DNA of 32,000 nt from Candidatus Lokiarchaeum ossiferum. GTDB lineage: Archaea > Asgardarchaeota > Lokiarchaeia > Sigyniarchaeales > Promethearchaeaceae. Positions within the stretch are counted from its first letter, which is position 1, and each line of letters begins with the position of its first letter. Positions 5,324-32,000 of this stretch are shown here, piece by piece. Both the position numbers and the translations under genes were made by a program. The stretch is from contig CP104013.1 in assembly GCA_025839675.1 (NCBI GenBank), forward strand, positions 1,380,001 to 1,412,000. Direction: 5' to 3'. A model generated the notes under the pieces. That model searched no databases. It saw only the letters and a program-made list of their open reading frames with translations, and was not told the DNA's origin.

Positions 5324-5411
5324 ATAAACTTCTTTGCGCGAGCCTTTATCTATAAATGCTACTCTCTATTGGTTATACTTCTTGAATTAGAAGTAAAGAA
5401 GATGCATAAAA

Positions 5412-15027: not shown

Positions 15028-15100
15028 TTACTGCCTCCATTGTTCGGGCAAAAAACTTATGATCCAAATATTTTTTTTAACTCTACCTCCGCTTTTAATC

Positions 15101-15862: not shown

Positions 15863-15923
15863 TCAATAATTAAACCCTTTTTTGTTATTATTCAGCATTT
15901 TGTCTCCATTTTGTTGGTTTAGT

Positions 15924-17264: not shown

Positions 17265-17511
17265 TCGAAATATTCACATCCTAGTTTTGTAGATTTTTCA
17301 ATTATAAATTGTTATATCTACTTAGTAGATCTAACAAACCTTTTTAAATTTTTGTTCTGCCTACATAGCAAAGTAGGAAAAGAGTCTTGATGAGAAAGAG
17401 TCTTCTTATTAAGTTTTTGGAAAACACCAAAAATTGCACTTATTGTGCAAAATTGGTTAATTAGAATCTCACTAAACAGATTCCTTCCAATTTATAAAAT
17501 GCAAATGAACC

Positions 17512-20214
17512 TTATCTCATTAAAGAAAATAATGATTCAATGGAAATTTTTTTTTGTAATTCCTCAAGATTTTTTGTAATTCCTTGTTTGTTCAATAGAA
17601 TTTTCATTGTTATTACTCGATCCTCATTTGGATGCAAGCTAAAATAATTATCAGAAACAATAAAATCACAATCTTGCACTTTAAAGTGAACATATAGAGC
17701 AATTTTTTTAGCACTGATCTTTATTTGAAAGGAAAAGCGATCTTGTATTTTTTTTTCTTCAGAATTTATTGGAAATAAATCAAAATTAATACCCGGGTTT
17801 TGTAAGGGAAATGATTTAGGTTCCTTAAACAATCGGAAGCCAAATGCTCGATCCCTTAGGGATTCAATTCCATTGAATTGTGTAGAATAGAAAATAACAT
17901 GATTTTTTAATTCACGTCGAGAAATAGAGAGTTGCTTTAGTGTGATTTTGTCTATTAGAATCGAACAGCAAGGGTCCAAATTAACTTCCACTGAATTTTG
18001 ATACTTGATAACCCCTAAATGATTTTGAATAGACCACTTCACAGAGGATTGCACGGGATATTGCAAATCATTGGTACCCCAAATTTCCACTTTGCTATCG
18101 GATTCCTGGATACTAATGAGGAGCGGGGAATAACTACGTTTTACAAAATAATGAGAGGCTTTCCACCGACCATAATAGTCTACCGAAGACCAACTAGCTA
18201 CAGGCCAACAATCATTCAATTGCCAGTAGAGAGAGCCCATACATTCAAAATTTGTTCGATGACGACGCCAATGTTCAATTCCATATTCCAATGCTTCACC
18301 ATGAGTTATTTGGGATAAGATCACTTGACTCTCAAAAGAAGAAGGAATTTTAAAACGCCGCTTCATATATTTTAGAATTTTAGCATTTCCAGCCAAATTT
18401 TTTTGGTGGTTTTCCATAATTGAAGAGAAAAAATCAAGTTCTGAATCAGGACAAAACGATTTAATAGTCTTCAAAGAAGGAAAAGATTCAAATCCATATT
18501 CTGACATAAATCGAGAATTAAATTTTCTGAAAGCAGAAAAAGGAGCACTCTGATGCCAGACTTTCCAAAAATGGGAGTCACCAGTATGAGCTTGATTACT
18601 CTTCAATAAATTCAAGAGGGAACCTTTAAACTTCTTTCCTTCGGAAAAACCATTGGAAGGAGAACTGGGCCAATAGGAGCGAGAAGGATCAAACCTTTCG
18701 GTGAGAAAAGGGAGTTTTTGCTCAAATAATTTGTGATATCCCACTTTAAATTTACGATGGACTTTTTTACCTAAAAGGCGGGATTCAAATGCGAGTAAAG
18801 GCCACAACTGTTCAATTTCATTATTACCACACCATAATGCCAAACTAGGATGATTTCGAATGCGTTTTATATTCTGTATCACCTCAACCTCTACATTCTT
18901 TAGGAATTCATCATTGTAAGGATAAATTGCGCAAGCAAAGGGAAAATCTTGCCACACTAAAATCCCTAATTGATCGCATAAATCATAAAACAAGTCATCT
19001 TCATAGATCCCACCACCCCAGACCCGTAGAAAATTCATATTAGCATCTATCGCCGCATGGAGATTCATTTCATAAAGACCCATCTTTTTTCCACGGGGAA
19101 TGCAACTGTCAATCGGAATCCAATTGGCACCTTTTGCAAAAATTGGAACTCGATTTAGTGAAAAATAAAAGCTTTCACCCCATTGATCGGGTTGTCTGAT
19201 CAATTGCAATTCTCGAATTCCAAATTTCAACTGTCTCTCATCCAATACTAAAGAAGATGAATGAGAACGAATAATTACCTGAAGAGTATACAAAATTTGA
19301 TCTCCAAGCCCAATAATCCACCATAGTTTTGGATTTTGAATAATTAATTGCTGAGAAGAAGATGAAGTTTCAAGTTTTTGCGAAAATTTAGAAATTATTT
19401 GCGAATCTAGAAGAATGCTTGTCTCAATATCCACATCTGCCATATTCTTAAGGGGTATTTTTCCATCAAGTTCAAGATCAATGCAAACTTCAGCTGAATC
19501 TACTACCGGTTGTATTGAAGAAATAGATTTTTTCCAATGGACTTTGTGTTTAGAAAAATTGAGTTTTTGCTTTATGTTGACGGAATTAATTTTGACCTTA
19601 TTCCACGATACGATTTCCACCGGTTGCCAGATACCAATATCTGGAAATTTAGGTCCCCAATCCCAGCCAAAGGAATATTGGCTTTTTCGGAGATAAGGAG
19701 CCCCAGGAATCCCAGCATAACCAGTATTTAATTTAATATGTTCTTTTTCAATTTTCTTCGCAACATACTTTGTTGGACTATGAAATTGGACCTTGAGTTC
19801 ATTTAATCCTTCATGGATGTAATTTTTAATATCGAATTCATATTTACGGAACATATTTTTCGTTGAGCTAACTTCTTTATCATTTAAGTAAATTGTAGTT
19901 ATTGTATCTAAACCATGAAAAATAAGCTCAATTTGTTCAAACAACAGAATTTCATTAGAAATAAAAAATTTTTTAATGAAAATCCAATCTTCTTCAAAGA
20001 CCCATGAAATGTGCCCTTCATTATTACCATAAAAAGGATCTGAAATAATATTTCTTTCCTCTAATACTTCTAATACAGTACAAGGAACATCTATATGAAT
20101 AGGTTTAATGGAAGAGTTCTGAATAGTCCAACCTTTATTTAAGGAGAGATTTTGTGGAGATAATAGGTTCGTTGAAGAAACTGAATTCATCGAATTGATC
20201 TTGATGTTTATCAA
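17512..20214 (-). CDS. Glycoside hydrolase family 2 beta-mannosidase-like
   Basis: 900 aa. Has a GH2 sugar-binding-like N-terminus, the acid/base block LWCGNNE, the nucleophile block FMSEYGFESFP and WQLNDCWP. The start could instead be the Met at 20190. Confidence 0.85.
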   Translation of the reverse strand: MINIKINSMNSVSSTNLLSPQNLSLNKGWTIQNSSIKPIHIDVPCTVLEVLEERNIISDPFYGNNEGHISWVFEEDWIFIKKFFISNEILLFEQIELIFHGLDTITTIYLNDKEVSSTKNMFRKYEFDIKNYIHEGLNELKVQFHSPTKYVAKKIEKEHIKLNTGYAGIPGAPYLRKSQYSFGWDWGPKFPDIGIWQPVEIVSWNKVKINSVNIKQKLNFSKHKVHWKKSISSIQPVVDSAEVCIDLELDGKIPLKNMADVDIETSILLDSQIISKFSQKLETSSSSQQLIIQNPKLWWIIGLGDQILYTLQVIIRSHSSSLVLDERQLKFGIRELQLIRQPDQWGESFYFSLNRVPIFAKGANWIPIDSCIPRGKKMGLYEMNLHAAIDANMNFLRVWGGGIYEDDLFYDLCDQLGILVWQDFPFACAIYPYNDEFLKNVEVEVIQNIKRIRNHPSLALWCGNNEIEQLWPLLAFESRLLGKKVHRKFKVGYHKLFEQKLPFLTERFDPSRSYWPSSPSNGFSEGKKFKGSLLNLLKSNQAHTGDSHFWKVWHQSAPFSAFRKFNSRFMSEYGFESFPSLKTIKSFCPDSELDFFSSIMENHQKNLAGNAKILKYMKRRFKIPSSFESQVILSQITHGEALEYGIEHWRRHRTNFECMGSLYWQLNDCWPVASWSSVDYYGRWKASHYFVKRSYSPLLISIQESDSKVEIWGTNDLQYPVQSSVKWSIQNHLGVIKYQNSVEVNLDPCCSILIDKITLKQLSISRRELKNHVIFYSTQFNGIESLRDRAFGFRLFKEPKSFPLQNPGINFDLFPINSEEKKIQDRFSFQIKISAKKIALYVHFKVQDCDFIVSDNYFSLHPNEDRVITMKILLNKQGITKNLEELQKKISIESLFSLMR

Positions 20215-20323
20215 GATAAATATACTGCTTGCAATTTAAGAGATATCTTAATTGCACAGAAATGTCGCAAACATTCTTAGGTTTCTACCGCCATTTTGAA
20301 GTAAACTTAAACGAAAGATTAAT

Positions 20324-21622
20324 ATGAGCATAGAAGAAAAACAAATAATTATGCATAATCCCTTAAATTCAACACGACGGATTCAAGCATTTGATTTTTT
20401 ACGTGGATTTGCAATAATGATCATTATCTTCGTCCACCGAATTCATTATACTTGGACAGGTATGGAAAATGGAGAGAACTTATTTACGGATCAAGGTATT
20501 GGAGTAGTATTAATAATTGTAACAATCGTTTTTTTTATGATGGCAGGTATTTTTTATGTTGTCTCTGCTACGGTAAATACATACAATTTCTATCACCGTG
20601 TAACCCAAGATCATGAAAAAATTAAACAATACACTAAAATTGGGATCATTTCGGGGTTTTGGTTAATCGGTTTAAATTATATCCAACGGATCTTTTTTAT
20701 GAATGGATTTACAAGTACTTCATCGGGTTTAGAACCGGAATTTCCCATAGGTATCTTTCCAAGTTTATTGAAATACCAAGGAGAATTCACATGGTTTTGG
20801 TCCATCCTTACGCAAACAGGTACCCTTTTTGTATTAGGGATCAATTTAACTATCGTCACAGGAATTCTTTATTTGCTCTTTAAAAATAAGAACAATCAAA
20901 ATATGAAACAAAAATTGCGCATTTTATACATTTTAGGAGTAATGTTCTTTATCTTATCAATTTTCGTTAAATTTTGGGGACATCCTTTTTATTCTCAGTT
21001 GTATTCAGACGAAAATTATTTCGCAGCATTTATTTTGGGGGGGTTTACAACCGAATTTGGTCTCTTTCCGTATCTCAGTTTCGGGTTGTTTGGGAGTTAT
21101 TTTGGATTGTTAATTGCTTCTGAAGAGAATTTACTCATAATTAAAAAGAAATTTCGCAAATCGATTTTGATTTGGTTAGTGATCGGATTAATTGGAGTCG
21201 TCGTTTTTAATACCGATACCGATTTTGGAGATCGTTTGATGACTACTGCAATTAATTGTGTGGGAGTGGCTCTCTTCATGCTTTTCGAATGGATTTGTTT
21301 AAAAATTTATGACTATTCAGCCAAGAAAATAGATGAAACTAAAAGTAAGCCATCAAATGGCATTGTTACTTTCGGAAAAATTAGTTTAACCATTTATATT
21401 TTAGAACCCTTGCTCGCAGAAATATTGATTCTTCCTATAGATTTGATTTTTGGAATAGAATGGAAAACAAATGTCTGGATGGTGGGATTGTTTGGAATTT
21501 TGTGTATAGCTATGTGGATGTTAATAGCCTTTTTCTGGAAAAAGAGCGAATTCATTGGTTCTTTTGAATGGTGTTCCAAAAAACTGTTAAAAAAGAATCG
21601 ACCTATTCAATATAAGGTATAG
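20324..21622 (+). CDS. DUF1624 / heparan-alpha-glucosaminide N-acetyltransferase-like polytopic membrane protein
   Basis: The N-terminal RIQAFDFLRGFAIMIIIFVHRI is the family signature (R..lD.lRG.a...M...H). About 10-11 TM helices. Confidence 0.65.
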   Translation: MSIEEKQIIMHNPLNSTRRIQAFDFLRGFAIMIIIFVHRIHYTWTGMENGENLFTDQGIGVVLIIVTIVFFMMAGIFYVVSATVNTYNFYHRVTQDHEKIKQYTKIGIISGFWLIGLNYIQRIFFMNGFTSTSSGLEPEFPIGIFPSLLKYQGEFTWFWSILTQTGTLFVLGINLTIVTGILYLLFKNKNNQNMKQKLRILYILGVMFFILSIFVKFWGHPFYSQLYSDENYFAAFILGGFTTEFGLFPYLSFGLFGSYFGLLIASEENLLIIKKKFRKSILIWLVIGLIGVVVFNTDTDFGDRLMTTAINCVGVALFMLFEWICLKIYDYSAKKIDETKSKPSNGIVTFGKISLTIYILEPLLAEILILPIDLIFGIEWKTNVWMVGLFGILCIAMWMLIAFFWKKSEFIGSFEWCSKKLLKKNRPIQYKV

Positions 21623-21712
21623 AACAAATTAATTTGAATTAGAAAATGAAGAAATTATTGACTTCATTTAGAAAAAATGAATTGAAAAATTAACTTGGTA
21701 ATATTGATTGTT

Positions 21713-22441
21713 TTATTTTTTCTTTTTACTCGCCAATTTACTCAGAATCATGAAAATTCGTAGCACCATTCCAACAAAATCGAAGAAAATATCAATAACA
21801 GCCATCATCCAATAACCACGTTTTATTTTCCCCGGTAAGGTTGCGGCATCAAAGACCATCACTCCAAATAAATAGCCAAACATTAGTAAATCGACGACAA
21901 TATTATTTTCTCCTTCTCCAAATATGGCAATTATAACTACTTCTAACACTCCAAATAGAATACCAAATAACAAGAAATACCAACAATAATGTTTAGAAAT
22001 CTTGTCTTTCAATAAAATGCCCAAGGCCATGGCTCCACCAGTGGCAAAAACACCAATTAATGCACTCGTTATGAAAAGACTTCGGGTTAATTCTTCACCC
22101 AAATCTTCCGCTACAAAGGATACAACAAACGACAACAAAACTCCAGATCCCAGTGCAGAAATGAAGAACAATACCATGGCAATTAAATTAACTCGTAAGA
22201 AAGTAAAAATCATGAGTAAAATCCAAACACCTACAAACACACATAATGCAATGATTATTTGAGGAATGGAAAAAGTGGTGAGATCTAAAGCAGGAGCACC
22301 GAACAATCCACTGAAATAGAGAGTAGATAATAACCAAAGAAGTGCTGCAACAAACATCGTTGGTAAAACTTTAGAATAAAATTCGTTGTCAAGAGCAGGT
22401 TGTTTACCTTTTACATGACCAAAATAATAAAAATTTCCCAT
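21713..22441 (-). CDS. Bax-inhibitor-1/YccA (TMBIM)-like membrane protein
   Basis: 242 aa, about 7 TM. The C-terminal MAVIDIFFDFVGMVLRIFMIL followed by a Lys-rich tail resembles the BI-1 family C-terminus. Confidence 0.6.
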   Translation of the reverse strand: MGNFYYFGHVKGKQPALDNEFYSKVLPTMFVAALLWLLSTLYFSGLFGAPALDLTTFSIPQIIIALCVFVGVWILLMIFTFLRVNLIAMVLFFISALGSGVLLSFVVSFVAEDLGEELTRSLFITSALIGVFATGGAMALGILLKDKISKHYCWYFLLFGILFGVLEVVIIAIFGEGENNIVVDLLMFGYLFGVMVFDAATLPGKIKRGYWMMAVIDIFFDFVGMVLRIFMILSKLASKKKK

Positions 22442-22737
22442 AATGTGAGCTAATTCTTGGAAAATTTAATTGTTTTGATCGCTGAAAAGAAGGAAAGAAT
22501 TGAATTCCCCTTATTGGAAAAGAGACATCATTTATGTTTTTTAAACTATAAAAAAAATGGAATAAGAAGACCTTTTCTTAAAATATGCTATAATCCTTTC
22601 AAAACACATTTTTTTCCATTAACATACTCAATTGAAAGATAATTTTTATTTTTAGATTAAAGCAAACTTTGAAAAGCTTAATATTAATAATATAAATATC
22701 AGAGAAACGATTGATTTTTTTTGGTGTAAATTAACTC

Positions 22738-24108
22738 ATGTTATTTGAAAAATCTACTGTCCATTTTGAAATTACTTCTGAGTGCAACCATCGATGTATT
22801 TTTTGTTACAATCAACATCAGGTTTTTGACAATTCAAAAAATAAAGAATACATATCTTTCGATTTTTATAAGCAAATTATCGACAAGTTCGTTGAACTGA
22901 AAGTTAAGAATGTTATTATCACCGGTGGAGAACCATTTCTCCACCCTGAAATTCTTCCTTTTATTGAATATGCAAAAAAAAGGAAATTAGATATAAGTAT
23001 CAATACAAATGGATCGCTTTTAACACCTGAAATTAACCAATTTTTAGCGAACTACAAAATTCGCCTACTTGTTTCTCTCCATGGCACTAATTCTTTATTT
23101 GAAAAATTAGTTCAAGTTAAAACCTTTGATCGAGTTCGAAAAAATCTAATTGATGCACGCAAAAATTATAATCTAAATATTTCTCTACAATTTGTTCCAA
23201 TTAAAATTAATTTCCATCATATCCGAGAAGTTGCACAATTTGCAAAAGAGTTGGGTTGTTATCTACAAGTAGGAAGATACACGGATCCTTGTGGAATATC
23301 AGAAAGTACTTCATCCTTTGGATTAACGATTAAAGAATACCATTCTCTTTTCAATGAAATTCTCAAAATAAAAAGAGAATTAAAAGTACCCATTGGACTC
23401 GGAAATGGTATCCCATTTTGTATGATTGATGAAGAAAACCTCTCCAATGACATCCTGAATCTATTTAATCGCTGTGGGTGTTCTTTGGGAAAATCAATTT
23501 GGGCTTTGAGTCCAGAAGGTAACATTCGGGCTTGTCCGCAATTAAGTAATACAATTGGAAATATATTAACGGATTCTATCAAAATCCTATCTCAAAAAAT
23601 TGAAGATTTATTTAATTCATCAGTAATCACTCCCGAAATATGTCAAGATTGCGGAATTCGAATACTTTGTTGTGGAGGATGCAGAGCAAGCGGATTGGTA
23701 AGAAATGGTGCAATTAATTCATTTGATCCCCTATTTCCTCTTGATGAAGAGAGGCGAAATAAATCAATTGCATTAATTAAGCAAAAAATCAAAATTCTTG
23801 GAGAGAAAGAGAACCAATCATTATCAAGTGAATTTGATGAACAAAGCATTTTGACTGCAAATCGAGAGCTATTTCGAAGAAATTTAAATAGTTACGTTAT
23901 TTTAAGAGGATTTGGAAAAAATGGATTCATATATAAAGAGTTAAATGAATCTGCCTTGGCGATATTGAATGAATTCAAACATCCAAGTTCTGTGAAATCA
24001 GTTCTAATAAAATTAAGCAAAGATTTCTCTATTGGAATCGAAGAAATTAGAGGAGACGTTTTCAATTGCATTGAAAATTTTCTTAAAGCAGACATTTTAC
24101 AATTCTGA
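22738..24108 (+). CDS. Radical SAM enzyme with a full SPASM domain and a PqqD-like C-terminal extension (putative peptide maturase)
   Basis: CX3CX2C at C16/C20/C23 (CNHRCIFC, nt 22783-22806) and the GGEPFL SAM-binding motif. The SPASM signature is read exactly: C248-X12-G-X4-C266, then C302-X2-C305-X5-C311-X3-C315 (nt 23473-23682). Residues ~385-456 resemble PqqD/RRE. Confidence 0.9.
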   Translation: MLFEKSTVHFEITSECNHRCIFCYNQHQVFDNSKNKEYISFDFYKQIIDKFVELKVKNVIITGGEPFLHPEILPFIEYAKKRKLDISINTNGSLLTPEINQFLANYKIRLLVSLHGTNSLFEKLVQVKTFDRVRKNLIDARKNYNLNISLQFVPIKINFHHIREVAQFAKELGCYLQVGRYTDPCGISESTSSFGLTIKEYHSLFNEILKIKRELKVPIGLGNGIPFCMIDEENLSNDILNLFNRCGCSLGKSIWALSPEGNIRACPQLSNTIGNILTDSIKILSQKIEDLFNSSVITPEICQDCGIRILCCGGCRASGLVRNGAINSFDPLFPLDEERRNKSIALIKQKIKILGEKENQSLSSEFDEQSILTANRELFRRNLNSYVILRGFGKNGFIYKELNESALAILNEFKHPSSVKSVLIKLSKDFSIGIEEIRGDVFNCIENFLKADILQF

Positions 24109-24163
24109 TCTCAATTTCTTGTCGTAATCCGTAGACACTCAAAAAATAAAAACAATTTTTATA

Positions 24164-25669
24164 TCAAATTGATTTTTCATTTTGTATCAAATAATCCCGA
24201 TTACCAAGATATGTTAAAAATTCACTCAAATCCGCTTTAACTTCACCCATTTCATTTTCTTCCAAATCAAAAGATTGTTTCAACTGAGTCAAAATATCAG
24301 CTAATGACCAGTAATTTAATTCAAGTAAAATTTTAGTAATTTCATATGCAACATCATTAATGAAAAAAGCGGTTTGTTTTTTCTCATCTAAAAAATAATA
24401 TGAATTTTCATTAACATGTTTTAATAACACATGTTTTGGAAAGGAATATGTTTGCGTTTCTATTAATTTGAAATCTATATTCTCATCAGAGTAATTAATT
24501 TCAGATTCACTATTGAATATGGTTTTGGGAATTTGTTGTTTTCCCGATATGATTAAATATACGTCCCGAATAATGTTATTAATATCGCCTCCCGACCAAA
24601 TTGAAAGAAAAAAGAATGTAGTGCTTATTACTGCGTAATATACCATTGTAAACAAAAATAACTCAAATTTTTCGTTGAAAAGATTTCCACTTCTAACTGA
24701 AATAATTGAGAGCACTGTGGGAAATAAAATAACGAGATTACACCACAAGGTACCCATTATAGCGATTTTTATTCTTTCTTTTGGAGTAAAAAGCAAAAGT
24801 GGAATTTGAACAGTCTCAACATTAATAAGAGAATTCAACTTTGAAATATAAGACCCAAATCCGCCATACATTTTGGCAGCAATTAAATGACCCCATTCAT
24901 GAAATATGGAAAGAAATAGAGATAAAAGTAAATAGGTTGAGTAATTAAAAGCATCAGAAAAAATATATGAAATTGAAATTGGATTGTTCGTAAAAAACCA
25001 AAAAAATTCCAAAAATGTTGCAGAAAGTAATAATATCCAATAGAGATTCTTAATTTTTTTTTTCCAGAAAAGTTCTGATAAATAATTGAATAGTTTTGTT
25101 CTAAAAGTCATTCGAAAATGAATTGCCAGAATAAGGTTTGGAGAAACACCTAAGATATTGAAAGCGGGCCAATCTTTGTTAATTGCGAATTCTATTAATT
25201 GATTTAAAATAAACCAGCTATTTCGAGTTATTAAGAAAAGAGATACAAATGATAAGGAAAATATCCGTTTATCAAAAGAATAAATTACATATAAACCAAT
25301 ACCAAGTAAAATTGAAAAGAAATGAAGAAGGAGGACAAGAATTCTTTTATTTTTCTTTAAAAGGATAGAATCAATATGAATAAGAATTTGAGAATAAGAT
25401 AAAATCGACCAAACTCCATAAATAGAGAATAGGATATTTTTGATTTTAAACGAATTATCCCCAATAGAAAGCACTTTATCCAAAAAGATTTGAGACATTA
25501 TGAAAAAAACTAAAAATCCAAGCAATGAAAATGCGAATATTCTCCAAAAGGGAGGTTTAATTATCTTCTTAAACTGAAAAAGACCATAAAACCACAACAT
25601 AATTGGAATTGTGAACGCAAAAGAGGAGAAAATGAAAATACGGAAAATTATATATAATCCAGAATCCAT
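24164..25669 (-). CDS. Polytopic membrane protein with an HExxH motif (M50/site-2-protease-like) and a C-terminal PqqD-like soluble domain
   Basis: 501 aa, about 10 or more hydrophobic helices. HEWGH at residues 257-261 (nt 24887-24901) sits at the end of a hydrophobic helix. The C-terminal ~90 aa are hydrophilic with a PqqD-like pattern (FFINDVAYEITKILLELNYWSLADILTQLKQSFDLEENEMGEVKADLSEFLTYLGNRDYLI). Confidence 0.6.
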   Translation of the reverse strand: MDSGLYIIFRIFIFSSFAFTIPIMLWFYGLFQFKKIIKPPFWRIFAFSLLGFLVFFIMSQIFLDKVLSIGDNSFKIKNILFSIYGVWSILSYSQILIHIDSILLKKNKRILVLLLHFFSILLGIGLYVIYSFDKRIFSLSFVSLFLITRNSWFILNQLIEFAINKDWPAFNILGVSPNLILAIHFRMTFRTKLFNYLSELFWKKKIKNLYWILLLSATFLEFFWFFTNNPISISYIFSDAFNYSTYLLLSLFLSIFHEWGHLIAAKMYGGFGSYISKLNSLINVETVQIPLLLFTPKERIKIAIMGTLWCNLVILFPTVLSIISVRSGNLFNEKFELFLFTMVYYAVISTTFFFLSIWSGGDINNIIRDVYLIISGKQQIPKTIFNSESEINYSDENIDFKLIETQTYSFPKHVLLKHVNENSYYFLDEKKQTAFFINDVAYEITKILLELNYWSLADILTQLKQSFDLEENEMGEVKADLSEFLTYLGNRDYLIQNEKSI

Positions 25670-25742
25670 TGTAGTGAAACCGATCTCCCACGTTCATAAT
25701 ATTTTGATAAAATTATAGAAAAAAAGTTATTGATTTCTTGGG

Positions 25743-25967
25743 TTATTCTCCAGAAACATCCCCAGGAATATCGAAACAATCGCAATCACAATTACAATAA
25801 CAATCATCACAATTGGCCGAATAACAATCACAATTTGCTGGGTCTTGGCAGTTGCTTGCATAACAAACTCCAGAAACTTTGCCACCTGGGTCATTCATCT
25901 GACAATCACATGAAGGATTAAATTCTGAAATTATATTACGAATTACGGGTTTTGTCCACTTCTTCAT
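25743..25967 (-). CDS. Cys/Asp-rich small peptide, candidate RiPP precursor
   Basis: 74 aa: MKKWTKPVIRNIISEFNPS then a core with 12 Cys and 10 Asp (CDC, CYC, CNCDCDC). GGAG lies about 11 nt upstream of the ATG. It sits directly upstream of, and co-oriented with, the HExxH membrane protein gene. Confidence 0.7.
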   Translation of the reverse strand: MKKWTKPVIRNIISEFNPSCDCQMNDPGGKVSGVCYASNCQDPANCDCYSANCDDCYCNCDCDCFDIPGDVSGE

Positions 25968-26130
25968 TTTTTCTTATTCTCCAAGATTTTTCGAATTAAA
26001 AATCTGTTTATACTATCAAAATAATGAATTGTCTATATAAAATTTTTCCAACATTAGTACATATTTAGGGCATTTTTATAGCTTCCAAATACATTTTTAA
26101 TTTTGAAAAATTAATAATAGTGATTTTAAA
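25968..26130. promoter_or_regulatory. Divergent promoter region between the precursor gene (minus) and the TPR gene (plus)
   Basis: 163 bp of AT-rich spacer with several TATA-like elements (CTATATAAAA at 26032-26041, TTTTTATA at 26073-26080, GTTTATAC at 26006-26013). Assigning them to either gene is a guess. Confidence 0.3.
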
Positions 26131-28392
26131 TTGTTAACTGATTTTGATGGACACAAGATTCGTTTTTCAAATGAATTAAAAAAAAAAATTGAACTGAAAT
26201 ATAAAGATATAGTGAATCATGATATCACACACCAATATCGCGAGAAATTTAATATATTATCCGATTTGACACTTCAAAATAAACGAGATGAAACCGAAAT
26301 TGCATATTTAAAGGCAAAATATGCATATATCTTGTATGAAATGCAGTATTTTGAATCCAATCCGCATTTTAAAAATAGAAAAGTAATCTTCCAAAATGAT
26401 AATATTGGTGAATTAATTTGGTATCTAACTTATTTATGTTCCAGAAAAATTACTCCAGAGGTAGACGAAATTCATGATTATTTAAAAGAGAAATTGGAAC
26501 ATTCAACAGATAACCTTCTTAATCTTGAATTTCTATATCCTCATTTCTTAATATTAAGTGATCAGCGTAAATTTTCACATGTATTTGATGAATTTTTGAA
26601 TATCAAGTCGGAAATTCTTCTTCTTTCAGAAGAATTTAGATTAACAAAAGCATTGCTCTATTCTTGTGCAATAAATATTATACCTTATATTGAAAAAGAA
26701 TCAGAAATAATCGATGAAATTTTTGTTGAAATAGAAAAAGTAATTAATTTTCAAAAAGACCTTTTTGGATATTGTGAGATTCAAAGATATTTAATTAGTA
26801 CAGAATTATTATCTCCTGAAAAAGAGGAAACTAATCGCAATCAACTCAAAAAATTACTTTCTTATTATTTTGGGATTGGAACTAAGCTCATTCAAATGAA
26901 AGTTACAATGAATTTAGGACTTCTTGATTATTATAATGAGAATTATATTTCGAGCGTGAAATATCAACAACAGGCACTTCAATTAGCCAAAGATTTAAAA
27001 AGTATTAAATTTCAATCTTATATATCCTATTTGACTGGATTATCACTAGTTAAGTTGGGGAATTATTTGGAAGCTAAGCAACATTTTTTATCAGCTCTGG
27101 AAGGAAATCGTCTTCAAGCAAATGAAATTCAAATAATTAATATTTTCGAAGCATTAGGAAATCTGTCAGAAGATATAGGTCAATTTGATAAGGCAGAAGA
27201 ATTTTATAATTCCGAAATTGAACTTGCTAAAAAACATAATGTTTTATCATCTATTGCTGCAGGGAACTTGAATTTAGCAATATTAAAGCTTTCTCAAGGA
27301 AATCTTTTAGAAGTCTTGAATTTATTACAGGAAGCAAATCATTATGCTCAAGATACATCCATGGATAATTTTATTCTTTCCATTATTAGTTATCAAGCTA
27401 AACTTTCATTTATGCAGGGAAATTATCAGAAATCATTAACATTATTAGAAAAAGGAAAAGAAAAATTAAACCAAAATTCATCTCCCGATGAATTGGCAAA
27501 TTTTTACCTTCATGAAGCAGAAATACGATTGGGAATTGGTCAAGTTAATATTTCAAAAAAAATCTTACTCTCAGTTTACAATAAACAAGTTCGGGGGGAA
27601 TCATTATCAACTTTTAGTGAAATTAATGAAATTCTTGGATCAATTCATTTCTTTGAAAATAAAACAGATGAAGCAAAAAAAATACTCATCGAAACTTATG
27701 AAAAATTGGCAGAAAAGGGATCTTTTGGAGGTATTTTCCAATCAGTTTTGGTACATCTCCTCGAATTTTGCATGATTAACAAAGATGAAAAAGAATACAA
27801 CAATTGGAAAGACATAATGATGAGCCATTTAGGTACCCATAAAATTTCATTGTTATATGGAAATCAAATAAAACTCATATTTTTAGAATTAATGCATAAA
27901 TACAATTCAAATTCCTTAGATCTCACAGCCTTAAATGATTTTGAGACCACTTTGAAAGAAAAACAATTTCTAAATCTTAAGTATAAAGTGAACTTGCTCA
28001 AAATTCGTTTTTTAGTTGACTCAGATCAAATCAAACAAGCGCTTGGTGTTATTCAACAGCTTGAATGCTCAATCGCAGACAATCCTAACTTAATCTTCGA
28101 AATTGAAATAAAACTCATTCAAGGATTAATATTAAGTCGAGATTTTGATTTTGAACAAGCACGAGAAAAAATATCTTCATTAACAAGTTTATTACAAAAA
28201 TATAATCTGAAAAGATATATTGATCGGCAACAAGAAATCACCGATTTAATTCAAAAACATTGTGAATTATTTTCAGATATATATGATTTCTCTGAGCAAA
28301 AAGACACTCAAAATAGGCAAAAAGAAAATTTGAAGGTACCATTGAATGTTATTCATCAATATTTAGATGAATCTATTAAGATCTTATCTTAG
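26131..28392 (+). CDS. Large TPR-repeat protein
   Basis: 753 aa with repeated TPR-like units (NYISSVKYQQQALQLAKDL, GNYLEAKQHFLSALE, GQFDKAEEFYNSEIELAKK, QGNLLEVLNLLQEANHYA, QGNYQKSLTLLEKGKE). I found no Walker A motif. The start is TTG at 26131, and the first in-frame ATG is at 26341. Confidence 0.7.
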   Translation: MLTDFDGHKIRFSNELKKKIELKYKDIVNHDITHQYREKFNILSDLTLQNKRDETEIAYLKAKYAYILYEMQYFESNPHFKNRKVIFQNDNIGELIWYLTYLCSRKITPEVDEIHDYLKEKLEHSTDNLLNLEFLYPHFLILSDQRKFSHVFDEFLNIKSEILLLSEEFRLTKALLYSCAINIIPYIEKESEIIDEIFVEIEKVINFQKDLFGYCEIQRYLISTELLSPEKEETNRNQLKKLLSYYFGIGTKLIQMKVTMNLGLLDYYNENYISSVKYQQQALQLAKDLKSIKFQSYISYLTGLSLVKLGNYLEAKQHFLSALEGNRLQANEIQIINIFEALGNLSEDIGQFDKAEEFYNSEIELAKKHNVLSSIAAGNLNLAILKLSQGNLLEVLNLLQEANHYAQDTSMDNFILSIISYQAKLSFMQGNYQKSLTLLEKGKEKLNQNSSPDELANFYLHEAEIRLGIGQVNISKKILLSVYNKQVRGESLSTFSEINEILGSIHFFENKTDEAKKILIETYEKLAEKGSFGGIFQSVLVHLLEFCMINKDEKEYNNWKDIMMSHLGTHKISLLYGNQIKLIFLELMHKYNSNSLDLTALNDFETTLKEKQFLNLKYKVNLLKIRFLVDSDQIKQALGVIQQLECSIADNPNLIFEIEIKLIQGLILSRDFDFEQAREKISSLTSLLQKYNLKRYIDRQQEITDLIQKHCELFSDIYDFSEQKDTQNRQKENLKVPLNVIHQYLDESIKILS

Positions 28393-28409
28393 AGAAATTA
28401 CCAAGCGTG

Positions 28410-28419
28410 TTTTTTTTTT
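28410..28419 (+). terminator. T10 run 18 nt after the TPR gene stop
   Basis: GCGTG followed by T10, read directly. Confidence 0.35.
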
Positions 28420-28517
28420 ATACCCACTTTATTCCAATTTATTATGCTACTTCTGGTTTATTCCAATAAAAATATAAAAAAATGGAGGATAAATAGCAAT
28501 TTATATTAATATCTAAT

Positions 28518-29264
28518 TTAAGAAAAACAAAAATCAGTTAACTGAGAGATATTTTTTTGAAAGATAGCATTATCCTTCAAAATGTGTTTTCCCTGAGCAA
28601 TATTGAAAGCGATTTCGTCATAATAATTCATATAAAGAAAATTAGCAATCTTCATTTCCGATGAAAATTTTTTTTCCCAATTCGAAATTAGGCCACCCAT
28701 TGCATCTACATTTGGAATTTGGTTCCAGAAAACAGCAAATTCTTTTCCTAAAGCAAATGTTTTTTGATAAACATCTTGAACCATCTTTAAAGTACCTTTA
28801 AAATTGTTTAATTCTGCTCGTAAAATTAAAACAATTTTATTTGCGATTAAGCCATTATTAATTTGAATAAATCCCCATCCTGGACTGGAATCAATTATAC
28901 AATAATCAAATTGAGAGGATAGATTTCGTAAGTCACCTAAAAATAATTTCAATCGTTTTCCATGATAAGATTGGTCAACAGAAAAAACTTTATCATTGAG
29001 AGAAAAATTATAACCACAACAAATGACTGAAAATCCATGATTAGTTTTTGAGATTGCCTTGGATAAATCACAATTACCTTCATAATAGTCGTTAAAAGTA
29101 AATTTTGGGTTTACTTTCAAAATTTCAATAAATGAGGGCATACTAATATCAGTTTCAATTAATAATACCCGCTTATTTTTATTTGCTAAATTCGTTGCAA
29201 GGTTAAGTGCTATTAGAGATTTACCAGTTCCCCCGCGAAATGAATGTACTGTTATTCTTTTCAT
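28518..29264 (-). CDS. ParA/MinD-family P-loop ATPase
   Basis: Deviant Walker A HSFRGGTGKS (nt 29217-29243), ETD switch-like LLIETD, and Walker B CIIDSSPG. 248 aa. Confidence 0.8.
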   Translation of the reverse strand: MKRITVHSFRGGTGKSLIALNLATNLANKNKRVLLIETDISMPSFIEILKVNPKFTFNDYYEGNCDLSKAISKTNHGFSVICCGYNFSLNDKVFSVDQSYHGKRLKLFLGDLRNLSSQFDYCIIDSSPGWGFIQINNGLIANKIVLILRAELNNFKGTLKMVQDVYQKTFALGKEFAVFWNQIPNVDAMGGLISNWEKKFSSEMKIANFLYMNYYDEIAFNIAQGKHILKDNAIFQKNISQLTDFCFS

Positions 29265-29405
29265 AAATTTATCACCAAAGAATATTTGATGCGGATTATT
29301 TTTTTAATGATTATTTAAATGGACACAATTGTATGAAGTTGGAGTCAAAATCGGGTTCATTTATTGAGAAATTAATTTATACCTTTATATTCTTATGGGT
29401 ATTGA

Positions 29406-30005
29406 TTATGGAATCCAATATATTTTCTCCCCCTTATAATCCATACTCTCAATATATCCATCAGCTATAAGAAGGTCTAAACCAGCGAGAATAATATTTT
29501 CTTCCCTCTTTGTATTTTCGATTATGTTCTTTAGGGTTATTTTACCAGAATTATCATCTAATTCGACTAGTATCATTGCAATTTCTCGACAGAAAGGATT
29601 TAAATCCGTTAAAATTTCATAAAGATTTTCCCGTAAATTCTTGCGCTCTTTGTCAATTTCATTTAGAAAATTAGAAATGGAAGTATCTACAAATTGCTGT
29701 ATTGTTTTAATGGAATATTTTTTTCGAAATGAAGGAGAATTGATATTTTTCGTTATAGAATTTGCGAGATCCTTCTCTAAATAAATATTATACACATCAT
29801 AGAGAGTATTGGTTTTGCGTATTGCATCGCGAATAACGTTAGTATTTTGAATATTTTGGACGCTTGTACTATTTTTCACAGCAATTTTTTCCTTCAAAGA
29901 TTGAAAGTGCACAAGATCGTCATCCTTCAAATCAATTCGAACAATAATTTTCGAATTTGAGAGGTCTTTATCCACAGGTTTTTTGGCCAATTTTTTCCCT
30001 TCCAT
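29406..30005 (-). CDS. Hypothetical protein, possibly DNA-binding (RHH-like N-terminus, wHTH-like C-terminus)
   Basis: KIIVRIDLKDDDLVHFQSLKEKI ... NVIRDAIRK has a strand-helix-helix pattern. The C-terminal ILAGLDLLIADGYIESMDYKGEKIYWIP resembles a recognition helix plus wing. This is pattern only; I recognise no family. Confidence 0.4.
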   Translation of the reverse strand: MEGKKLAKKPVDKDLSNSKIIVRIDLKDDDLVHFQSLKEKIAVKNSTSVQNIQNTNVIRDAIRKTNTLYDVYNIYLEKDLANSITKNINSPSFRKKYSIKTIQQFVDTSISNFLNEIDKERKNLRENLYEILTDLNPFCREIAMILVELDDNSGKITLKNIIENTKREENIILAGLDLLIADGYIESMDYKGEKIYWIP

Positions 30006-30172
30006 AAATTATGTAAGTAAAGGTCATATTGATATATAAATATGTTACAATAGTACGATAGATTTTTGATGGAAGCATAATTTGTACTAAGTTCATACCT
30101 TTCACCCCATAAGAAAATTACTAAAAAAAAACCAATTAACTAAAAAAGAGAAAATTTGAGGAATAAAAGAAA

Positions 30173-31456
30173 TTATTCATATCGAATTGAATCAATTGGA
30201 GATAATCTAGCAGCTTTACGTGCTGGGATAAATCCAAAGAAAACTGAAATACAAAGTCCAAATAAAACAGTTTTAATAATCATTAGAAATGAAAAGATAG
30301 GAGAAAATTGGATATCAAGGGGAGAACTATTATTTTCATTACCACTAAGCTGCATATATGCAGAATCCCTATGATTGATGAAATTCGTTGCACCAAATGC
30401 GAATAAAATTCCAAGGGCTACACCCAAGATTGAACCTAAAAACCCAATTAATAAAGATTCAAATAGAAAAATACCAAAAATCTCTCGATCTTTAGTACCG
30501 AGAGCTTTTAAAATCCCAATTTCATGAGTTCTCTCCAGAACGGAAATCGTCATAACATTCATAATTCCAATTCCAGCAACAAGTAATGAGATTCCCCCAA
30601 TCGCAGCAAGAAACAAAGTAATTATTGTTGTTGCAGTATCTATAGTTCCACGCATTTCTTGTAAAGTTATAATGCCGACGTTTTCGCCAAATATTTCTTT
30701 GATTTCCAATGAAACAGTAGAAATAGTTTCATTGGAATCATCAGTGAGCTTAACTAAAATCATAGAACATTCATCAGTTTTGAAAAGTTTTTCAGCAAAA
30801 TGAATGTCCATATAAATTGCATCATCAGAGGGAGCACCAAAAGTATCATATGTTCCGATAAATTCTAAGACTCCACTAATTTGTTGTGAAGAACTATAAA
30901 TTTTTGTTGAGGAAGATGTCCGTTCAGCCCATTGTAACGTCAAATTATCACCAATATTTCCGATCGAACTTTCATTCCCCCAAGGAAAAAAGAAATCATG
31001 ACCCAAAATAATAGAATCATTCAGCGTTTCAAGTCCAGACCCATTTCTGAATTTAAAAGTATTAGGATAAAGCTGAGAATATTTTTCAAAATCAATCCCA
31101 TATACAACCGTCAACACATCTGTGCCATTTAAAGACAAATAAACCTGTTTTTGAAGCACCGCCACAGCAGTTTCTACTAAAGTAAGATTTTCAACCAATG
31201 AAGAATCGTTGATGTATAGGGAGACTTCAAAATCGGTTCGAGACATAATCGAAGTTTGCTTTGCTATAGTTATGGTATCTGTGGAAAATCCTTTATCAAA
31301 TTCATCATTTATGGTTTGTTCCAAACCTTCACCTAAAGCGAGTAAGGAAATAATAGCCGCAATACCAACCACAACACCTATAGTAGTAAACATAGCTCTT
31401 TTTTTACGGCTAATTAATGTAATTCCAGAATATCCAAGGATATCACGAATTTTCAT
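30173..31456 (-). CDS. ABC transporter permease, FtsX/MacB-type
   Basis: An N-terminal TM helix, a ~230-aa extracytoplasmic domain, then three C-terminal TM helices with EIGILKALGTKDREIFGIFLFESLLIGFLGSILGVALG (FtsX-like signature). The start overlaps the upstream ATPase stop by 4 nt (ATGA). Confidence 0.85.
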   Translation of the reverse strand: MKIRDILGYSGITLISRKKRAMFTTIGVVVGIAAIISLLALGEGLEQTINDEFDKGFSTDTITIAKQTSIMSRTDFEVSLYINDSSLVENLTLVETAVAVLQKQVYLSLNGTDVLTVVYGIDFEKYSQLYPNTFKFRNGSGLETLNDSIILGHDFFFPWGNESSIGNIGDNLTLQWAERTSSSTKIYSSSQQISGVLEFIGTYDTFGAPSDDAIYMDIHFAEKLFKTDECSMILVKLTDDSNETISTVSLEIKEIFGENVGIITLQEMRGTIDTATTIITLFLAAIGGISLLVAGIGIMNVMTISVLERTHEIGILKALGTKDREIFGIFLFESLLIGFLGSILGVALGILFAFGATNFINHRDSAYMQLSGNENNSSPLDIQFSPIFSFLMIIKTVLFGLCISVFFGFIPARKAARLSPIDSIRYE

Positions 31457-32000
31457 GTCATCTTCTCTCCATTTTGAGTATCATCTATTATTTGCCCATC
31501 TACAAGATGTAAAATTCGTTCACATTTTTGAGCAATTTCTTGATCATGAGTAACCATTATGGTTGTAATACCTTTTGCGTCATGAATTTTGCGAATTAAA
31601 CTCATTAGTTCATCCCGAGTTGTAGTATCGACATTTCCTGTTGGTTCGTCTAACAATAAAAAAAAAGGTTCTTGACCAAGGGCTCGTGCAATAGCAACGC
31701 GTTGTTGTTCGCCTCCACTTAATTCATTATTTTTATGCTTCACCCGATCTGAAAGCCCTACAAAAGATAATAATTCTAAAGCCTTTTGTTTACGTATCCG
31801 ATGAGAAAAATCACCTTGAACTGTCATAGCAAGTTCAACATTTTGGAGTGCTGTGAAACGAGGAACTAAATTTAAATTTTGAAATACAAATCCTATCCTT
31901 TGTCGTAATTTCGCTAATTCATTCCTCCTCATAATTGAAACCGGAATATTATTTATGAAAATTTCGCCTTCAGTTGGGAGGTCTAGGGCACCAATAAGAT
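31453..32000 (-). CDS. ABC transporter ATP-binding protein (MacB/LolD-like), 5' end beyond the window
   Basis: Q-loop IGFVFQNLNLVP, signature LSGGEQQRVAIARAL, Walker B FFLLLDEPTGNVD and H-loop VTHD. The frame stays open to nt 32000 (…LIGALDLPTEGEIFINNIPVSIM…), so Walker A lies outside the window. Confidence 0.9.
   Translation of the reverse strand, partial: LIGALDLPTEGEIFINNIPVSIMRRNELAKLRQRIGFVFQNLNLVPRFTALQNVELAMTVQGDFSHRIRKQKALELLSFVGLSDRVKHKNNELSGGEQQRVAIARALGQEPFFLLLDEPTGNVDTTTRDELMSLIRKIHDAKGITTIMVTHDQEIAQKCERILHLVDGQIIDDTQNGEKMT

Follow-up and report, generated by a model that had tools for sequence, protein, structure and literature searches.

Closest described systems and the layout of the locus

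In the sporulation killing factor (skf) locus (SkfA/SkfB/SkfC), a peptide modified by a radical SAM (rSAM) enzyme is encoded beside a polytopic membrane protease, which is thought to remove the leader. This protease, SkfC, is of the CAAX/CPBP type and has neither an HExxH motif nor an RRE, and the locus adds an ABC exporter and a thioredoxin-like protein. In staphylococcal agr and Bacillus comQXP, the peptide, the membrane processing enzyme and the cognate binding protein co-diverge within conserved flanks. PapB joins Cys to Asp/Glu and tolerates Cys-Xn-Asp with n = 0-6 (PMC9413430, PMC12373016). Archaeal RiPPs made by rSAM enzymes are known from genome-mining counts only (PMC12144867). For Asgard archaea, no rSAM RiPP has been characterised so far.

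The window analysed here was a stretch of 32,000 nucleotides. A preliminary description had proposed an archaeal host, which was confirmed by the 74-aa peptide, 100% identical to NEF87_001138 of Candidatus Lokiarchaeum ossiferum. All three ORFs described were intact. They encode the rSAM/SPASM enzyme NEF87_001136 (22738..24108, plus strand, 456 aa), the polytopic HEWGH membrane protein NEF87_001137 (24164..25669, minus strand, 501 aa) and the precursor peptide NEF87_001138 (25743..25967, minus strand, 74 aa). The three genes are adjacent and the protease gene follows the peptide gene directly on the same strand, both as described, but the rSAM gene lies on the opposite strand and is convergent with the peptide-protease pair. 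A TPR protein gene (26131..28392, plus strand, 753 aa), divergent from the peptide gene, is the fourth member of a hypervariable allelic cassette comprising the four genes and their intergenic regions (22480..28450). The TPR gene, the cassette and the broad cross-domain clade of the rSAM enzyme had all been missed.

Gene order was shared by three Lokiarchaeal loci. Since their collinearity extends across the entire region, synteny carries little weight on its own. No curated NCBIfam family and no paper was found for the rSAM/peptide/protease system, and the block of rSAM, protease, peptide and TPR genes looks like a new, uncharacterised modified-peptide system. We consider it likely, though not assured, that the locus is a RiPP system built on an rSAM/SPASM maturase. 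This reading had been put forward before, and each of its testable elements held; the support is computational, without evidence from chemistry, expression or proteins.

Radical SAM/SPASM enzyme and its clade

NEF87_001136 matched Pfam Radical_SAM (PF04055) with an E-value of 1.1e-23. Regular expressions located the cluster motif CX3CX2C at aa 16-23 (C16/C20/C23), which was invariant across 16 homologues, and the full SPASM signature that had been reported, C248-X12-G-X4-C266 and C302-X2-C305-X5-C311-X3-C315. The SPASM cysteines span aa 228-315, with C228 also invariant, and there is no Cys between C315 and C444. Pfam SPASM (PF13186) was matched in homologues and not in the window protein. The AF2 model (pLDDT 80.7) matched anSME, SuiB, SkfB and CteB in Foldseek at E-values of about 1e-14, with anSME closest, and PDB profile searches returned SkfB (7e-28) and CteB (2e-25). 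The nearest solved relatives are peptide maturases (SkfB, anSME, CteB, SuiB and PqqE); together with the SPASM motif, they uphold the proposed peptide-modifying type.

The enzyme scored below the cut-off of every curated NCBIfam family, with a best score of no more than 98 bits. Against an HMM built from non-Loki peptide-associated homologues, it reached 264 bits. Rejected families were PapB (NF047865, 72 bits vs a cut-off of 340), the SCIFF/CteB maturase (TIGR03974, 64.5 vs 425, the peptide being without an NCBIfam match), the sactipeptide maturase StsB (NF045574, 57.7 vs 625) and viperin (NF038283, 61 vs 180, aa 7-110 only). The sactipeptide maturase AlbA (NF012164, cut-off 850) was absent among the top matches of the window protein, and relatives scored 57-62 bits. 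Mycofactocin MftC (TIGR03962, 80.5 vs 265 bits) and PqqE (cut-off 381, outside the top 25) were also rejected, and the peptide matched no precursor model of either.

PapB/PapA (freyrasin) is alike in its rSAM/SPASM maturase, its leader-bearing substrate and a core repeating Cys with nearby Asp. The PapB model was among the better NCBIfam matches for this rSAM clade (72-89 bits), and clade relatives scored 62-89 bits. There are several differences: PapA has six CX3D repeats, whereas the Loki core has irregular CxC/CD spacing; the Loki score is far under the cut-off and the host is archaeal; the RRE-like domain of the Loki rSAM enzyme is C-terminal, and an RRE-bearing membrane HExxH protease and a TPR protein are present. 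CteB/SCIFF (thermocellin), SkfB, AlbA and StsB share the enzyme superfamily, the overall fold and Cys-rich substrates. However, CteB and the other SPASM thioether synthases carry an N-terminal RRE, and that of SuiB is likewise not C-terminal. All equivalog scores of the Loki enzyme are far below their cut-offs and its precursor has no SCIFF-like sequence. Multiple Cys-to-Asp/Asn thioether cross-links would be the most likely chemistry. Their type is inferred and remains a guess because the enzyme falls well short of the cut-offs for the PapB, SCIFF, sactipeptide and mycofactocin families.

Homologues of the rSAM enzyme with 24-32% identity were found in DPANN archaea, CPR bacteria, Bacteroidales and Clostridia. 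Had these homologues lacked small Cys-rich neighbours, the RiPP reading would have been refuted. Instead, such ORFs occurred at 0.30 per kb within 1.5 kb of the rSAM gene vs 0.023 per kb farther away (80 loci), a 13-fold enrichment, with adjacency in 45/80 loci and in both domains. They typically begin 0-20 bp past the rSAM stop codon. In 18 tabulated peptides of the clade, Asp was the most frequent residue after Cys. At least 17 of 33 such loci have a peptidase of 200-250 aa with an HExxH...E motif beside the peptide, and 10/19 of these small peptidases matched Peptidase_MA_2. The pairing of rSAM enzyme, peptide and HExxH protein was thus observed family-wide, and it ties L. ossiferum to a large uncurated cross-domain family of rSAM enzyme, Cys/Asp-rich peptide and small zinc peptidase. 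Related cassettes are surrounded by housekeeping genes, and the family survives even in the reduced, very small genomes of CPR and DPANN. No transporter or immunity gene was conserved in the 33 related loci, which is compatible with either an intracellular or a secreted product. Another MAG (locus L094) combines this leader motif, C-terminal rSAM domain and protease family with a core of 19 aa that is unrelated. The rSAM enzyme of that locus (613 aa) has a C-terminus 28% identical to that of the window enzyme, free of gaps over 95 aa.

The public names are "GTP 3',8-cyclase" for NEF87_001136, hypothetical or "Peptidase M50" for NEF87_001137 and hypothetical or "Metallothionein" for NEF87_001138. 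Taken literally, these GenBank and UniRef names describe unrelated neighbours, namely a MoaA-type cyclase, an M50 protease that turns over membrane proteins, and a metallothionein, whose adjacency could be inherited in three collinear Lokiarchaeal loci. We regard this as very improbable. MoaA models were rejected at 85 bits vs 284 (TIGR02666) and 82 vs 325 (TIGR02668), covering just aa 8-203 of an enzyme that also carries a SPASM motif. The rSAM enzyme, Cys-rich peptide and HExxH peptidase are found together in different phyla, leader, RRE and protease are found again in L094 with a different core, and precisely these genes co-diverge between genomes. All three public annotations are corrected by the locus analysis.

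Proposed precursor peptide, membrane protein and RRE-like domains

The peptide comprises a leader (aa 1-19, 25911-25967, minus strand) with the sequence MKKWTKPVIRNIISEFNP and a Cys/Asp/Asn-rich core (aa 20-74, 25746-25910, minus strand). Its 12 Cys, 10 Asp and 5 Asn all lie beyond residue 19. The C-terminal two thirds had been called almost entirely Cys/Asp/Asn; the enrichment stands, but these residues make up 48-49%, and 76% in aa 46-66 only. An ORF of this kind is practically never expected by chance: among ORFs of 40-150 aa, 200 dinucleotide-Markov simulations of the window yielded at most 9 Cys and never 12. L001 and L003 carry homologous peptides of 80 and 49 aa, respectively, at the corresponding position. 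There, the leader was kept (conserved pattern MKKWxKPxIxNIxxEFN), and the cores, 30-61 aa long, differed freely. Of the leader codons, 13 were identical between the window and L001, 5 were synonymous and 1 was non-synonymous. Judged by these codon counts, the leader is under purifying selection; the core is hypervariable. Non-conservation of the ORF had been named as a ground for refutation; it was kept in three lineages. As suggested, the peptide falls outside the named precursor classes, matching no Pfam or NCBIfam family at E <= 0.1. The UniRef name metallothionein was rejected, as no Pfam or NCBIfam metallothionein model matched at this threshold.

That name and the core itself, with 12 Cys, CxC spacing and flanking carboxylates, leave room for another reading. 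The rSAM-matured peptide could stay intracellular or membrane-associated as a metal-binding or redox-active, 'metallothionein-like' cofactor of the mycofactocin/PQQ kind with most thiolates free, instead of becoming a secreted compound with thioether bridges. The enzyme would then perform other reactions, for instance oxidising Cys, epimerising residues or forming C-C links to the Tyr/Phe found after several of the Cys. Structurally, the nearest match is anSME, which oxidises Cys without cross-linking it, and both the lack of a conserved transporter or immunity gene in the 33 related loci and the persistence of the cassette in very small genomes would suit such a product. We consider this possible and rather unlikely. 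A removable leader and a dedicated peptidase are typical of released RiPPs, the peptide has no Pfam match of any kind, and the extreme variability of the core from strain to strain is unlike what would be expected of a conserved cofactor or metal site. Asp beside Cys also agrees with the known acceptor preference of PapB (PMC12373016).

PqqD-like domains had been proposed at the ends of both large proteins. In the window proteins, Pfam PqqD (PF05402, gathering score 23.4 bits) remained sub-threshold: the rSAM enzyme scored 15.2 bits (E 0.028) as full protein and 18.3 bits (E 0.003) as isolated domain, the membrane protein 18.9 bits (E 0.002). The proposal rests mainly on the predicted folds and on the L003 orthologue of the rSAM enzyme, whose C-terminal domain matched PqqD at 1.6e-6. 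In the rSAM enzyme (aa ~365-456, 23830..24105, plus strand), AF2 placed strands at aa 371-402 and helices at 404-411, 419-429 and 434-450 with a pLDDT of about 90; the best match in a PDB sequence search was PqqD 3g2b (E 0.051). For the membrane protein (aa ~415-492, 24194-24427, minus strand), the best Foldseek match was TbiB1 with bound leader (5v1v, TM 0.73, probability 1.0), followed by the TigE RRE. Both models have winged-helix topology, with three strands in the membrane protein or four predicted in the rSAM enzyme, then three helices. The two domains had no detectable mutual similarity (hhalign probability 0.8%). RRE-like folds thus seem to end both large proteins, mainly on the strength of predicted structures, and leader binding is inferred.

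The polytopic membrane protein carries the proposed HExxH motif once (regex), as HEWGH at aa 257-261 (24887-24901, minus strand). This motif and a GGD motif (D362 in WSGGD, 24584-24586, minus strand) were invariant in three full-length homologues. As in site-2 proteases (M50), the HExxH motif falls within a predicted membrane helix, and the conserved Asp within a later hydrophobic segment. Unlike those enzymes, the Loki protein has WSGGD in place of the usual LDG context, and it adds an N-terminal membrane domain of ~230 aa and the C-terminal RRE. Peptidase_M50 (PF02163) matched weakly in 4/4 homologues carrying the region (best E 6e-4), and the window protein scored a sub-threshold 13 bits vs the gathering score of 27.2. 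The membrane domain was modelled poorly (pLDDT 62), and the membrane part returned no PDB sequence match and, from this poor model, no Foldseek fold match. The family is nearly orphan, with 3 matches among 1.84 billion representatives; the fusion of a polytopic HExxH protein to an RRE is a protease architecture of just a handful of sequences among billions. NEF87_001137 is a putative leader peptidase, its protease activity being inferred. The skf locus likewise places a gene for a polytopic membrane protease next to an rSAM-modified peptide, but the HExxH and RRE of the Loki protein are lacking in SkfC, and skf has the ABC exporter. In the lasso peptide B1/B2 system (TbiB1), the best match of the C-terminal domain, an RRE also hands the leader to a leader peptidase. 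There, the protease is a soluble cysteine protease, whereas the Loki RRE is fused to a polytopic membrane protein with a zinc motif.

For the RiPP reading, the following pathway is inferred. The 74-aa precursor would be synthesised with its N-terminal leader MKKWTKPVIRNIISEFNP, which the rSAM enzyme may bind through its C-terminal RRE-like domain. Using three [4Fe-4S] clusters and SAM, the enzyme would then cross-link the core through several thioethers from Cys sulfur to Asp/Asn carbon (ranthipeptide-like) or to C-alpha (sactipeptide-like); the ranthipeptide class is defined by attachment to a non-alpha carbon of the acceptor residue. The RRE-like domain of the HEWGH protein would bind the same leader, and the protein may cleave it off at the membrane, close to the conserved E-F/L-N-P/S motif; this cleavage might be coupled to release. 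The TPR protein, co-varying with the other three, would probably bind the peptide as receptor, chaperone or regulator.

Hypervariable cassette and TPR protein

In blastn against L003, a second L. ossiferum genome, positions 12637-22480 and 28454-32000 of the window were 98.5% and 98.3% identical, and the region between them was ~65% identical or unalignable. With flanks at 98.4% identity and the rSAM, protease, peptide and TPR proteins at 47-60%, a four-gene hypervariable cassette is delimited, in which the four genes diverge as one unit between strains. The TPR gene adjoined the peptide gene in all three syntenic loci. Its product contains TPR_MalT (E 4.4e-12) and TPR_12 domains, and no DNA-binding or kinase domain was detected. 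It was 50.3% identical between genomes with 97-100% identical flanks, reaching 91% in the last ~35 aa only. It is a candidate for binding the peptide, as receptor, chaperone or regulator.

Sharp-edged hypervariable cassettes in genomes that are otherwise nearly identical are a typical mark of defence islands, and TPR proteins are frequently sensors. The block could therefore act against viruses, with rSAM enzyme, membrane protease, small toxic peptide and TPR sensor working jointly and no natural product for competition or signalling being made. PADLOC pVip models did match the rSAM N-terminus at 3e-19. This match is limited to the generic rSAM core (aa 8-120), the NCBIfam viperin score is 61 vs 180 bits, and the SPASM and RRE-like domains are absent from viperins. 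The remaining cassette proteins had no PADLOC match, and related cassettes lie amid housekeeping genes. A defence island is accordingly thought improbable.

The hypervariability hints at diversifying selection acting on an interaction through the peptide, be it competition, signalling or recognition; the biological role is inferred. In agr/comQXP, conserved flanks likewise enclose a variable block with sharp boundaries, although these systems have no sequence relationship to the Loki cassette, for which there is no signalling evidence. A bolder proposal, which we hold to be speculative and on balance doubtful, is strain-specific peptide recognition: a cross-linked peptide would be freed by an RRE-fused intramembrane metalloprotease and read by a co-evolving TPR protein, the alleles serving as pherotypes or in kin discrimination as in agr/comQXP, and the Cys/Asp-rich peptides of the clade (DPANN, CPR, Bacteroidales and Clostridia) would constitute a RiPP class not described before. 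The variable peptide cassette sits in the closest cultured relatives of eukaryotes. L. ossiferum is in culture, and therefore the product can be sought directly.

Several smaller elements were read from the intergenic regions. A TATA-like box, TTTTATATA (26034..26042, minus strand), lies ~70 nt 5' of the peptide ATG behind a purine-rich stretch, its promoter function being inferred, and GGAG occurs upstream of the gene at 25979-25982. The upstream region of the L001 peptide gene keeps AAAAATTTTTTATAT, ACAGATTTTT and ATCTTGGAG. A T7 run 18 nt past the peptide stop codon (25719..25725, minus strand) could be a partial terminator of the archaeal type, placed between the genes for precursor and protease, again with inferred function. 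At a further related locus, L095, a TPR_MalT protein adjoined a protease fragment.

Genes of the locus and their products

The DNA of the window was chromosomal and low in GC content. The preliminary description, which had proposed a RiPP locus from sequence alone, was correct in the positions of its three ORFs, all of which were intact. The 456 aa radical SAM (rSAM) enzyme NEF87_001136 was encoded at 22738-24108 on the plus strand. It was convergent with a gene pair on the minus strand comprising the Cys/Asp/Asn-rich 74 aa peptide at 25743-25967 and a polytopic HEWGH membrane protein of 501 aa at 24164-25669, with the peptide gene 74 bp upstream. The peptide was 100% identical to NEF87_001138 of the 6,035,313-bp L. 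ossiferum genome. Public databases name the enzyme 'GTP 3',8-cyclase', and membrane protein and peptide are hypothetical proteins with the UniRef names 'Peptidase M50' and 'Metallothionein', respectively. Three start sites are on record for the membrane protein, giving lengths of 501 aa (GenBank), 478 aa (Logan) or 444 aa (RefSeq). The longest form was favoured because its N-terminal MDS... extension aligned with the 503-aa orthologue. The remaining genes of the window were ordinary, including a tRNA synthetase, a P-type ATPase, urocanase and a GH2 mannosidase, and the window held no tRNA or Rfam matches.

Every one of the 12 Cys, 10 Asp and 5 Asn of the peptide was located after residue 19. 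The densest stretch of this core, aa 46-66 (CDCYSANCDDCYCNCDCDCFD), consisted of 76% Cys/Asp/Asn. None of the simulated sequences gave a similar ORF, and no Pfam or NCBIfam family matched, in line with the earlier statement that it fits no named precursor class. Lack of conservation of the ORF would have refuted the proposal, but homologues were present at the equivalent position of two further Lokiarchaeal loci, with 80 aa in L001 (MKKWTKPVIRNIVSEFNPSCDCQAF...CDCDCFDIPPGMGET) and 49 aa in L003 (MKKWSKPKITNIITEFNSEGCNTCNCYDGPGGRTLCFRTDCDGPCFVGE), from a second genome labelled L. ossiferum (CP163304.1). The first ~18 residues, the leader, were conserved, whereas the core differed in length and sequence. 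Leader codons of the window and L001 showed five synonymous and one non-synonymous differences, indicating translation under purifying selection. Both loci shared a BRE/TATA-like element, GGAG and neighbouring motifs upstream of the peptide. A T7 run was located 3' of the stop codon.

The rSAM enzyme matched Pfam Radical_SAM (1.1e-23) and carried the cluster motif CX3CX2C at C16/C20/C23. The full SPASM signature that had been read from the sequence was present as C248-X12-G-X4-C266 and C302-X2-C-X5-C-X3-C315, and C228 was invariant. A profile of 16 homologues matched SkfB, anSME, CteB, SuiB, TigE and PqqE in the PDB, and Foldseek retrieved the same structures with the AF2 model (pLDDT 80.7) at about 1e-14. 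The NCBIfam search that had been suggested brought the enzyme near no equivalog cut-off: NirJ2 scored 98 bits against 500, MoaA 85 against 284, mycofactocin 80 against 265, PapB 72 against 340 and SCIFF 64 against 425. None of the equivalogs was reached by the peptide or by the relatives of both in other phyla either. This evidence places the enzyme among the SPASM peptide maturases, in no named family. The public MoaA annotation is wrong, since the scores of 82-85 bits were far below the cut-offs of 284-325; only the N-terminal half was covered, and the enzyme combines a SPASM motif with an RRE-like tail.

The membrane protein was polytopic, contained HEWGH once, at aa 257-261, and shared its strand with the peptide, as had been described. 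HEWGH and WSGGD (D362) were invariant across three full-length homologues. Pfam Peptidase_M50 matched weakly in all four homologues carrying the region (best 6e-4); as these matches were below threshold, M50 membership is not settled. The overall quality of the model was low (pLDDT 62). The C-terminal ~85 residues formed three strands and three helices, with the leader-bound lasso-peptide RRE TbiB1 (TM 0.73, probability 1.0) and the TigE RRE as best PDB matches. Foldseek against the PDB gave no match for the membrane domain, nor did a PDB sequence search. The family is near-orphan: exhaustive HMMER against 1.84 billion representatives returned the protein itself and two fragments, and a word-index search added two full-length relatives. 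Two metagenome scans, with the protease alignment and the peptide leader respectively, brought no further relatives of the Loki-type system.

PqqD-like domains had been proposed at both C-termini. RRE-like folds were indeed predicted in both, but the Pfam PqqD matches were weak and below threshold, with 0.002 for the membrane protein and, for the rSAM enzyme, 0.028 for the full protein and 0.003 for the isolated domain. Residues ~365-456 of the rSAM enzyme were modelled as strands followed by three helices with pLDDT about 90, and the domain of the L003 orthologue matched PqqD with 1.6e-6. The RRE-like domains of enzyme and membrane protein showed no significant similarity to each other, and the C-terminal domains of 24 members of the wider rSAM clade gave only generic winged-helix matches in the PDB. 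C-terminal RRE fusions are already known from proteusins (PMC7470986).

A hypervariable cassette in a conserved flank

Window and L003 were 98.4% identical at the DNA level in the flanks (12637-22480 and 28454-32000), with 97-100% protein identity. Between the flanks, identity was only 60.5% for the rSAM enzyme, 46.7% for the protease, 50.3% for a 753-aa TPR protein and about 52% over 40 aligned residues for the peptide. The TPR protein reached up to 91% only over its last ~35 residues. The window alleles were closer to L001, with 62, 62, 69 and 63% for rSAM, protease, peptide and TPR protein, whereas flank proteins of L001 were only 83-85% identical. The history of the cassette is thus incongruent with that of the genome. 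The variable block delimits a functional unit independently of annotation. The three-gene module of the preliminary description stands in that rSAM, peptide and protease co-vary, but the unit also takes in the TPR gene, which is divergently transcribed relative to the peptide gene. A TPR_MalT protein also adjoined a protease fragment on contig L095. Searches with the TPR protein gave generic TPR matches only (LGN, OGT, kinesin light chain), with no RRNPP-type receptor and no HTH. The cassette borders held no meaningful repeats, mobile-element genes, tRNA or Rfam match. A defence island would be consistent with the hypervariability, but this reading fits little else.

The flank encoded a ParA/MinD-like protein (28518-29264), a 199-aa ORF (29406-30005), FtsX/MacB (30173-31456) and an ABC ATPase from 31453 to the window end, where its ORF runs off. 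The ParA-like ATPase and the MacB/FtsX transporter were rejected as cluster members. They map to the flank with 98-99% identity, and for the transporter this adds to the lack of a conserved transporter in the wider family. Although both adjoined the cassette in each of the three Lokiarchaeal loci, they are part of the 97-99.5% identical flank and not of the variable block. In L001, an additional winged-helix gene (MarR/HTH_24-like) and a 55-aa ORF separated the TPR gene from the ParA-like gene (6572-7435); window and L003 lacked both.

Related enzymes and Cys-rich peptides in other phyla

When 185,579 species genomes were scanned, 292 rSAM relatives were obtained, from which 80 loci with 24-32% identity were kept; their sources included DPANN archaea, CPR/Patescibacteria, Bacteroidales, Clostridia and Myxococcota. 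In 45 of the 80 loci there were small ORFs, not inside larger ORFs, with five or more Cys per 25 residues, usually starting 0-20 bp past the rSAM stop. Within 1.5 kb of the rSAM gene their density was 0.30 per kb, compared with 0.023 per kb elsewhere. Homologues lacking such neighbours would have refuted the proposal, which was not the case, and a merely coincidental neighbourhood of the genes is effectively excluded. Cores similar to the Loki core were CDCFSCDGSCHCECDGGGDCDWG, CDCNCDCDADDCDCNTYCDNCD and CDNCDCNCDCWCDYD, and Asp was second to Cys in abundance across 18 tabulated peptides. An HMM built from 33 non-Loki peptide-associated enzymes scored the Loki enzyme with 264 bits, well over any curated family, identifying it as a divergent member of the clade. 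NCBIfam held no model for clade enzymes or peptides.

A 200-250 aa HExxH...E protein adjoined the peptide in at least 17 of the 33 loci. Ten of 19 scanned (two from L010 included) matched Peptidase_MA_2 and one was M50B-like; with hhalign, only the HExxH helix aligned between these and the Loki protease. Bacteroidales loci held a DUF4760 protein in place of the peptidase. No transporter recurred among the 33 loci, and other neighbours were unrelated housekeeping genes.

Individual loci varied. Bacteroidales (L016, L020, L021, L023-L025, L030, L031, L036) often had two different tandem Cys/Asp/Asn-rich precursors with the common leader motif ...V[AV]YDFSNL..., and their DUF4760 product was a membrane protein. 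L010 (345-7055) held two tandem cassettes, each with rSAM, an HExxH...NEG peptidase of 225 aa and a small peptide (cores CNVCQQCDVCKISCNSLPRP and CFCDTCYNPCNQPCHGEGPCYSL), adjoined by archaeal-type T2SS/pilus genes. In L091 (Anaerohalosphaeraceae, Planctomycetota), two tandem 103-107-aa precursors with homologous long leaders (~76 aa) and short Cys/Asp cores lay directly 3' of the rSAM gene (7311-7987). The DPANN subgroup L013, L015, L017, L022, L037 and L087 (Pace-/Woese-/Nanoarchaeota) had rSAM enzymes of 366-371 aa without C-terminal domain and, ~680 bp upstream, a distinct conserved ~72-aa peptide (...SACKSCQCNCRLCLGGKAPEG...EKLLAA) with Cys and almost no Asp. Two further rSAM genes were located downstream in L006. 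A different small ORF (MKKIFAPRIEVFSAF...ACCACTACTACR), identical in a Spirochaetia and a Proteobacteria contig, preceded the rSAM homologue by 95 bp (L051 66-209, L052 1333-1476). The Cys-rich ORF ...GPNCDKYNAPPSCDCFTCYSCNTCDSTCDRQHTR (L004 7313-7507, L005 3495-3689) was uncalled, and an overlapping 60-aa ORF in another frame was annotated, showing how such precursors escape public annotation.

Proposed leader recognition and maturation

On MAG contig L094, two tandem precursors, ...KQKKWVKPEIKDKNTELNPVFVCYNYNIQPPCPEYTSW and ...KKQKWVKPEIKDRNAELNPVFVCYVGGVQTPCTEYSGW, adjoined a more remotely related membrane protease with 38% identity. Their leader carried the Loki motif KKWxKPxI...E[F/L]NP, whereas the 19-aa core was unrelated. 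The 613 aa rSAM enzyme of L094 shared just 21% identity with the window enzyme, but its C-terminal 95 residues aligned gap-free with 28% identity (GF..GF..ELNExAxAI..EF). Leader, C-terminal rSAM domain and protease thus co-travel, and catalytic domain and core change. Such co-travel would be predicted by leader-RRE recognition, and the comparison also points to a putative leader cleavage site just after E-F/L-N-P/S.

The maturation proposed here is inferred and goes beyond the domain content, peptide conservation pattern, clade-wide associations and cassette structure, which were observed. Both RRE-like domains would bind the leader, the enzyme may form thioethers from Cys to Asp/Asn of the core, the HEWGH protein would remove the leader at the membrane, and the TPR protein might bind the peptide. 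The Cys-to-Asp/Asn chemistry is a guess, resting in part on NxxcB, whose product is a Cys-Asn beta-thioether. It remains possible that the matured peptide is intracellular and metal- or redox-active, given that no transporter is conserved, that even reduced genomes carry the cassette and that chemistry like that of anSME can be envisaged, although variation of the core between strains speaks against a conserved cofactor.

Leader-guided rSAM/SPASM RiPP systems as such are already known. New are a Cys/Asp-peptide clade that no curated family covers, a polytopic HExxH protease with a fused RRE, a TPR partner that varies along with the other genes, the allelic nature of the cassette, and its Asgard host. 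No description of locus or family emerged from literature searches, which used the locus tag, the organism combined with RiPP, or the core motifs, with most subscription journals outside the search. In a survey of archaeal RiPPs, rSAM-type clusters of Asgard archaea appear as genome-mining counts only (PMC12144867).

L094 also encoded a 642-aa fusion protein (3439-5367) with an N-terminal UbiA-type prenyltransferase domain and a C-terminal half that was methyltransferase-like by eye only. Together with a second rSAM enzyme, it suggests extra tailoring of the L094 peptide.
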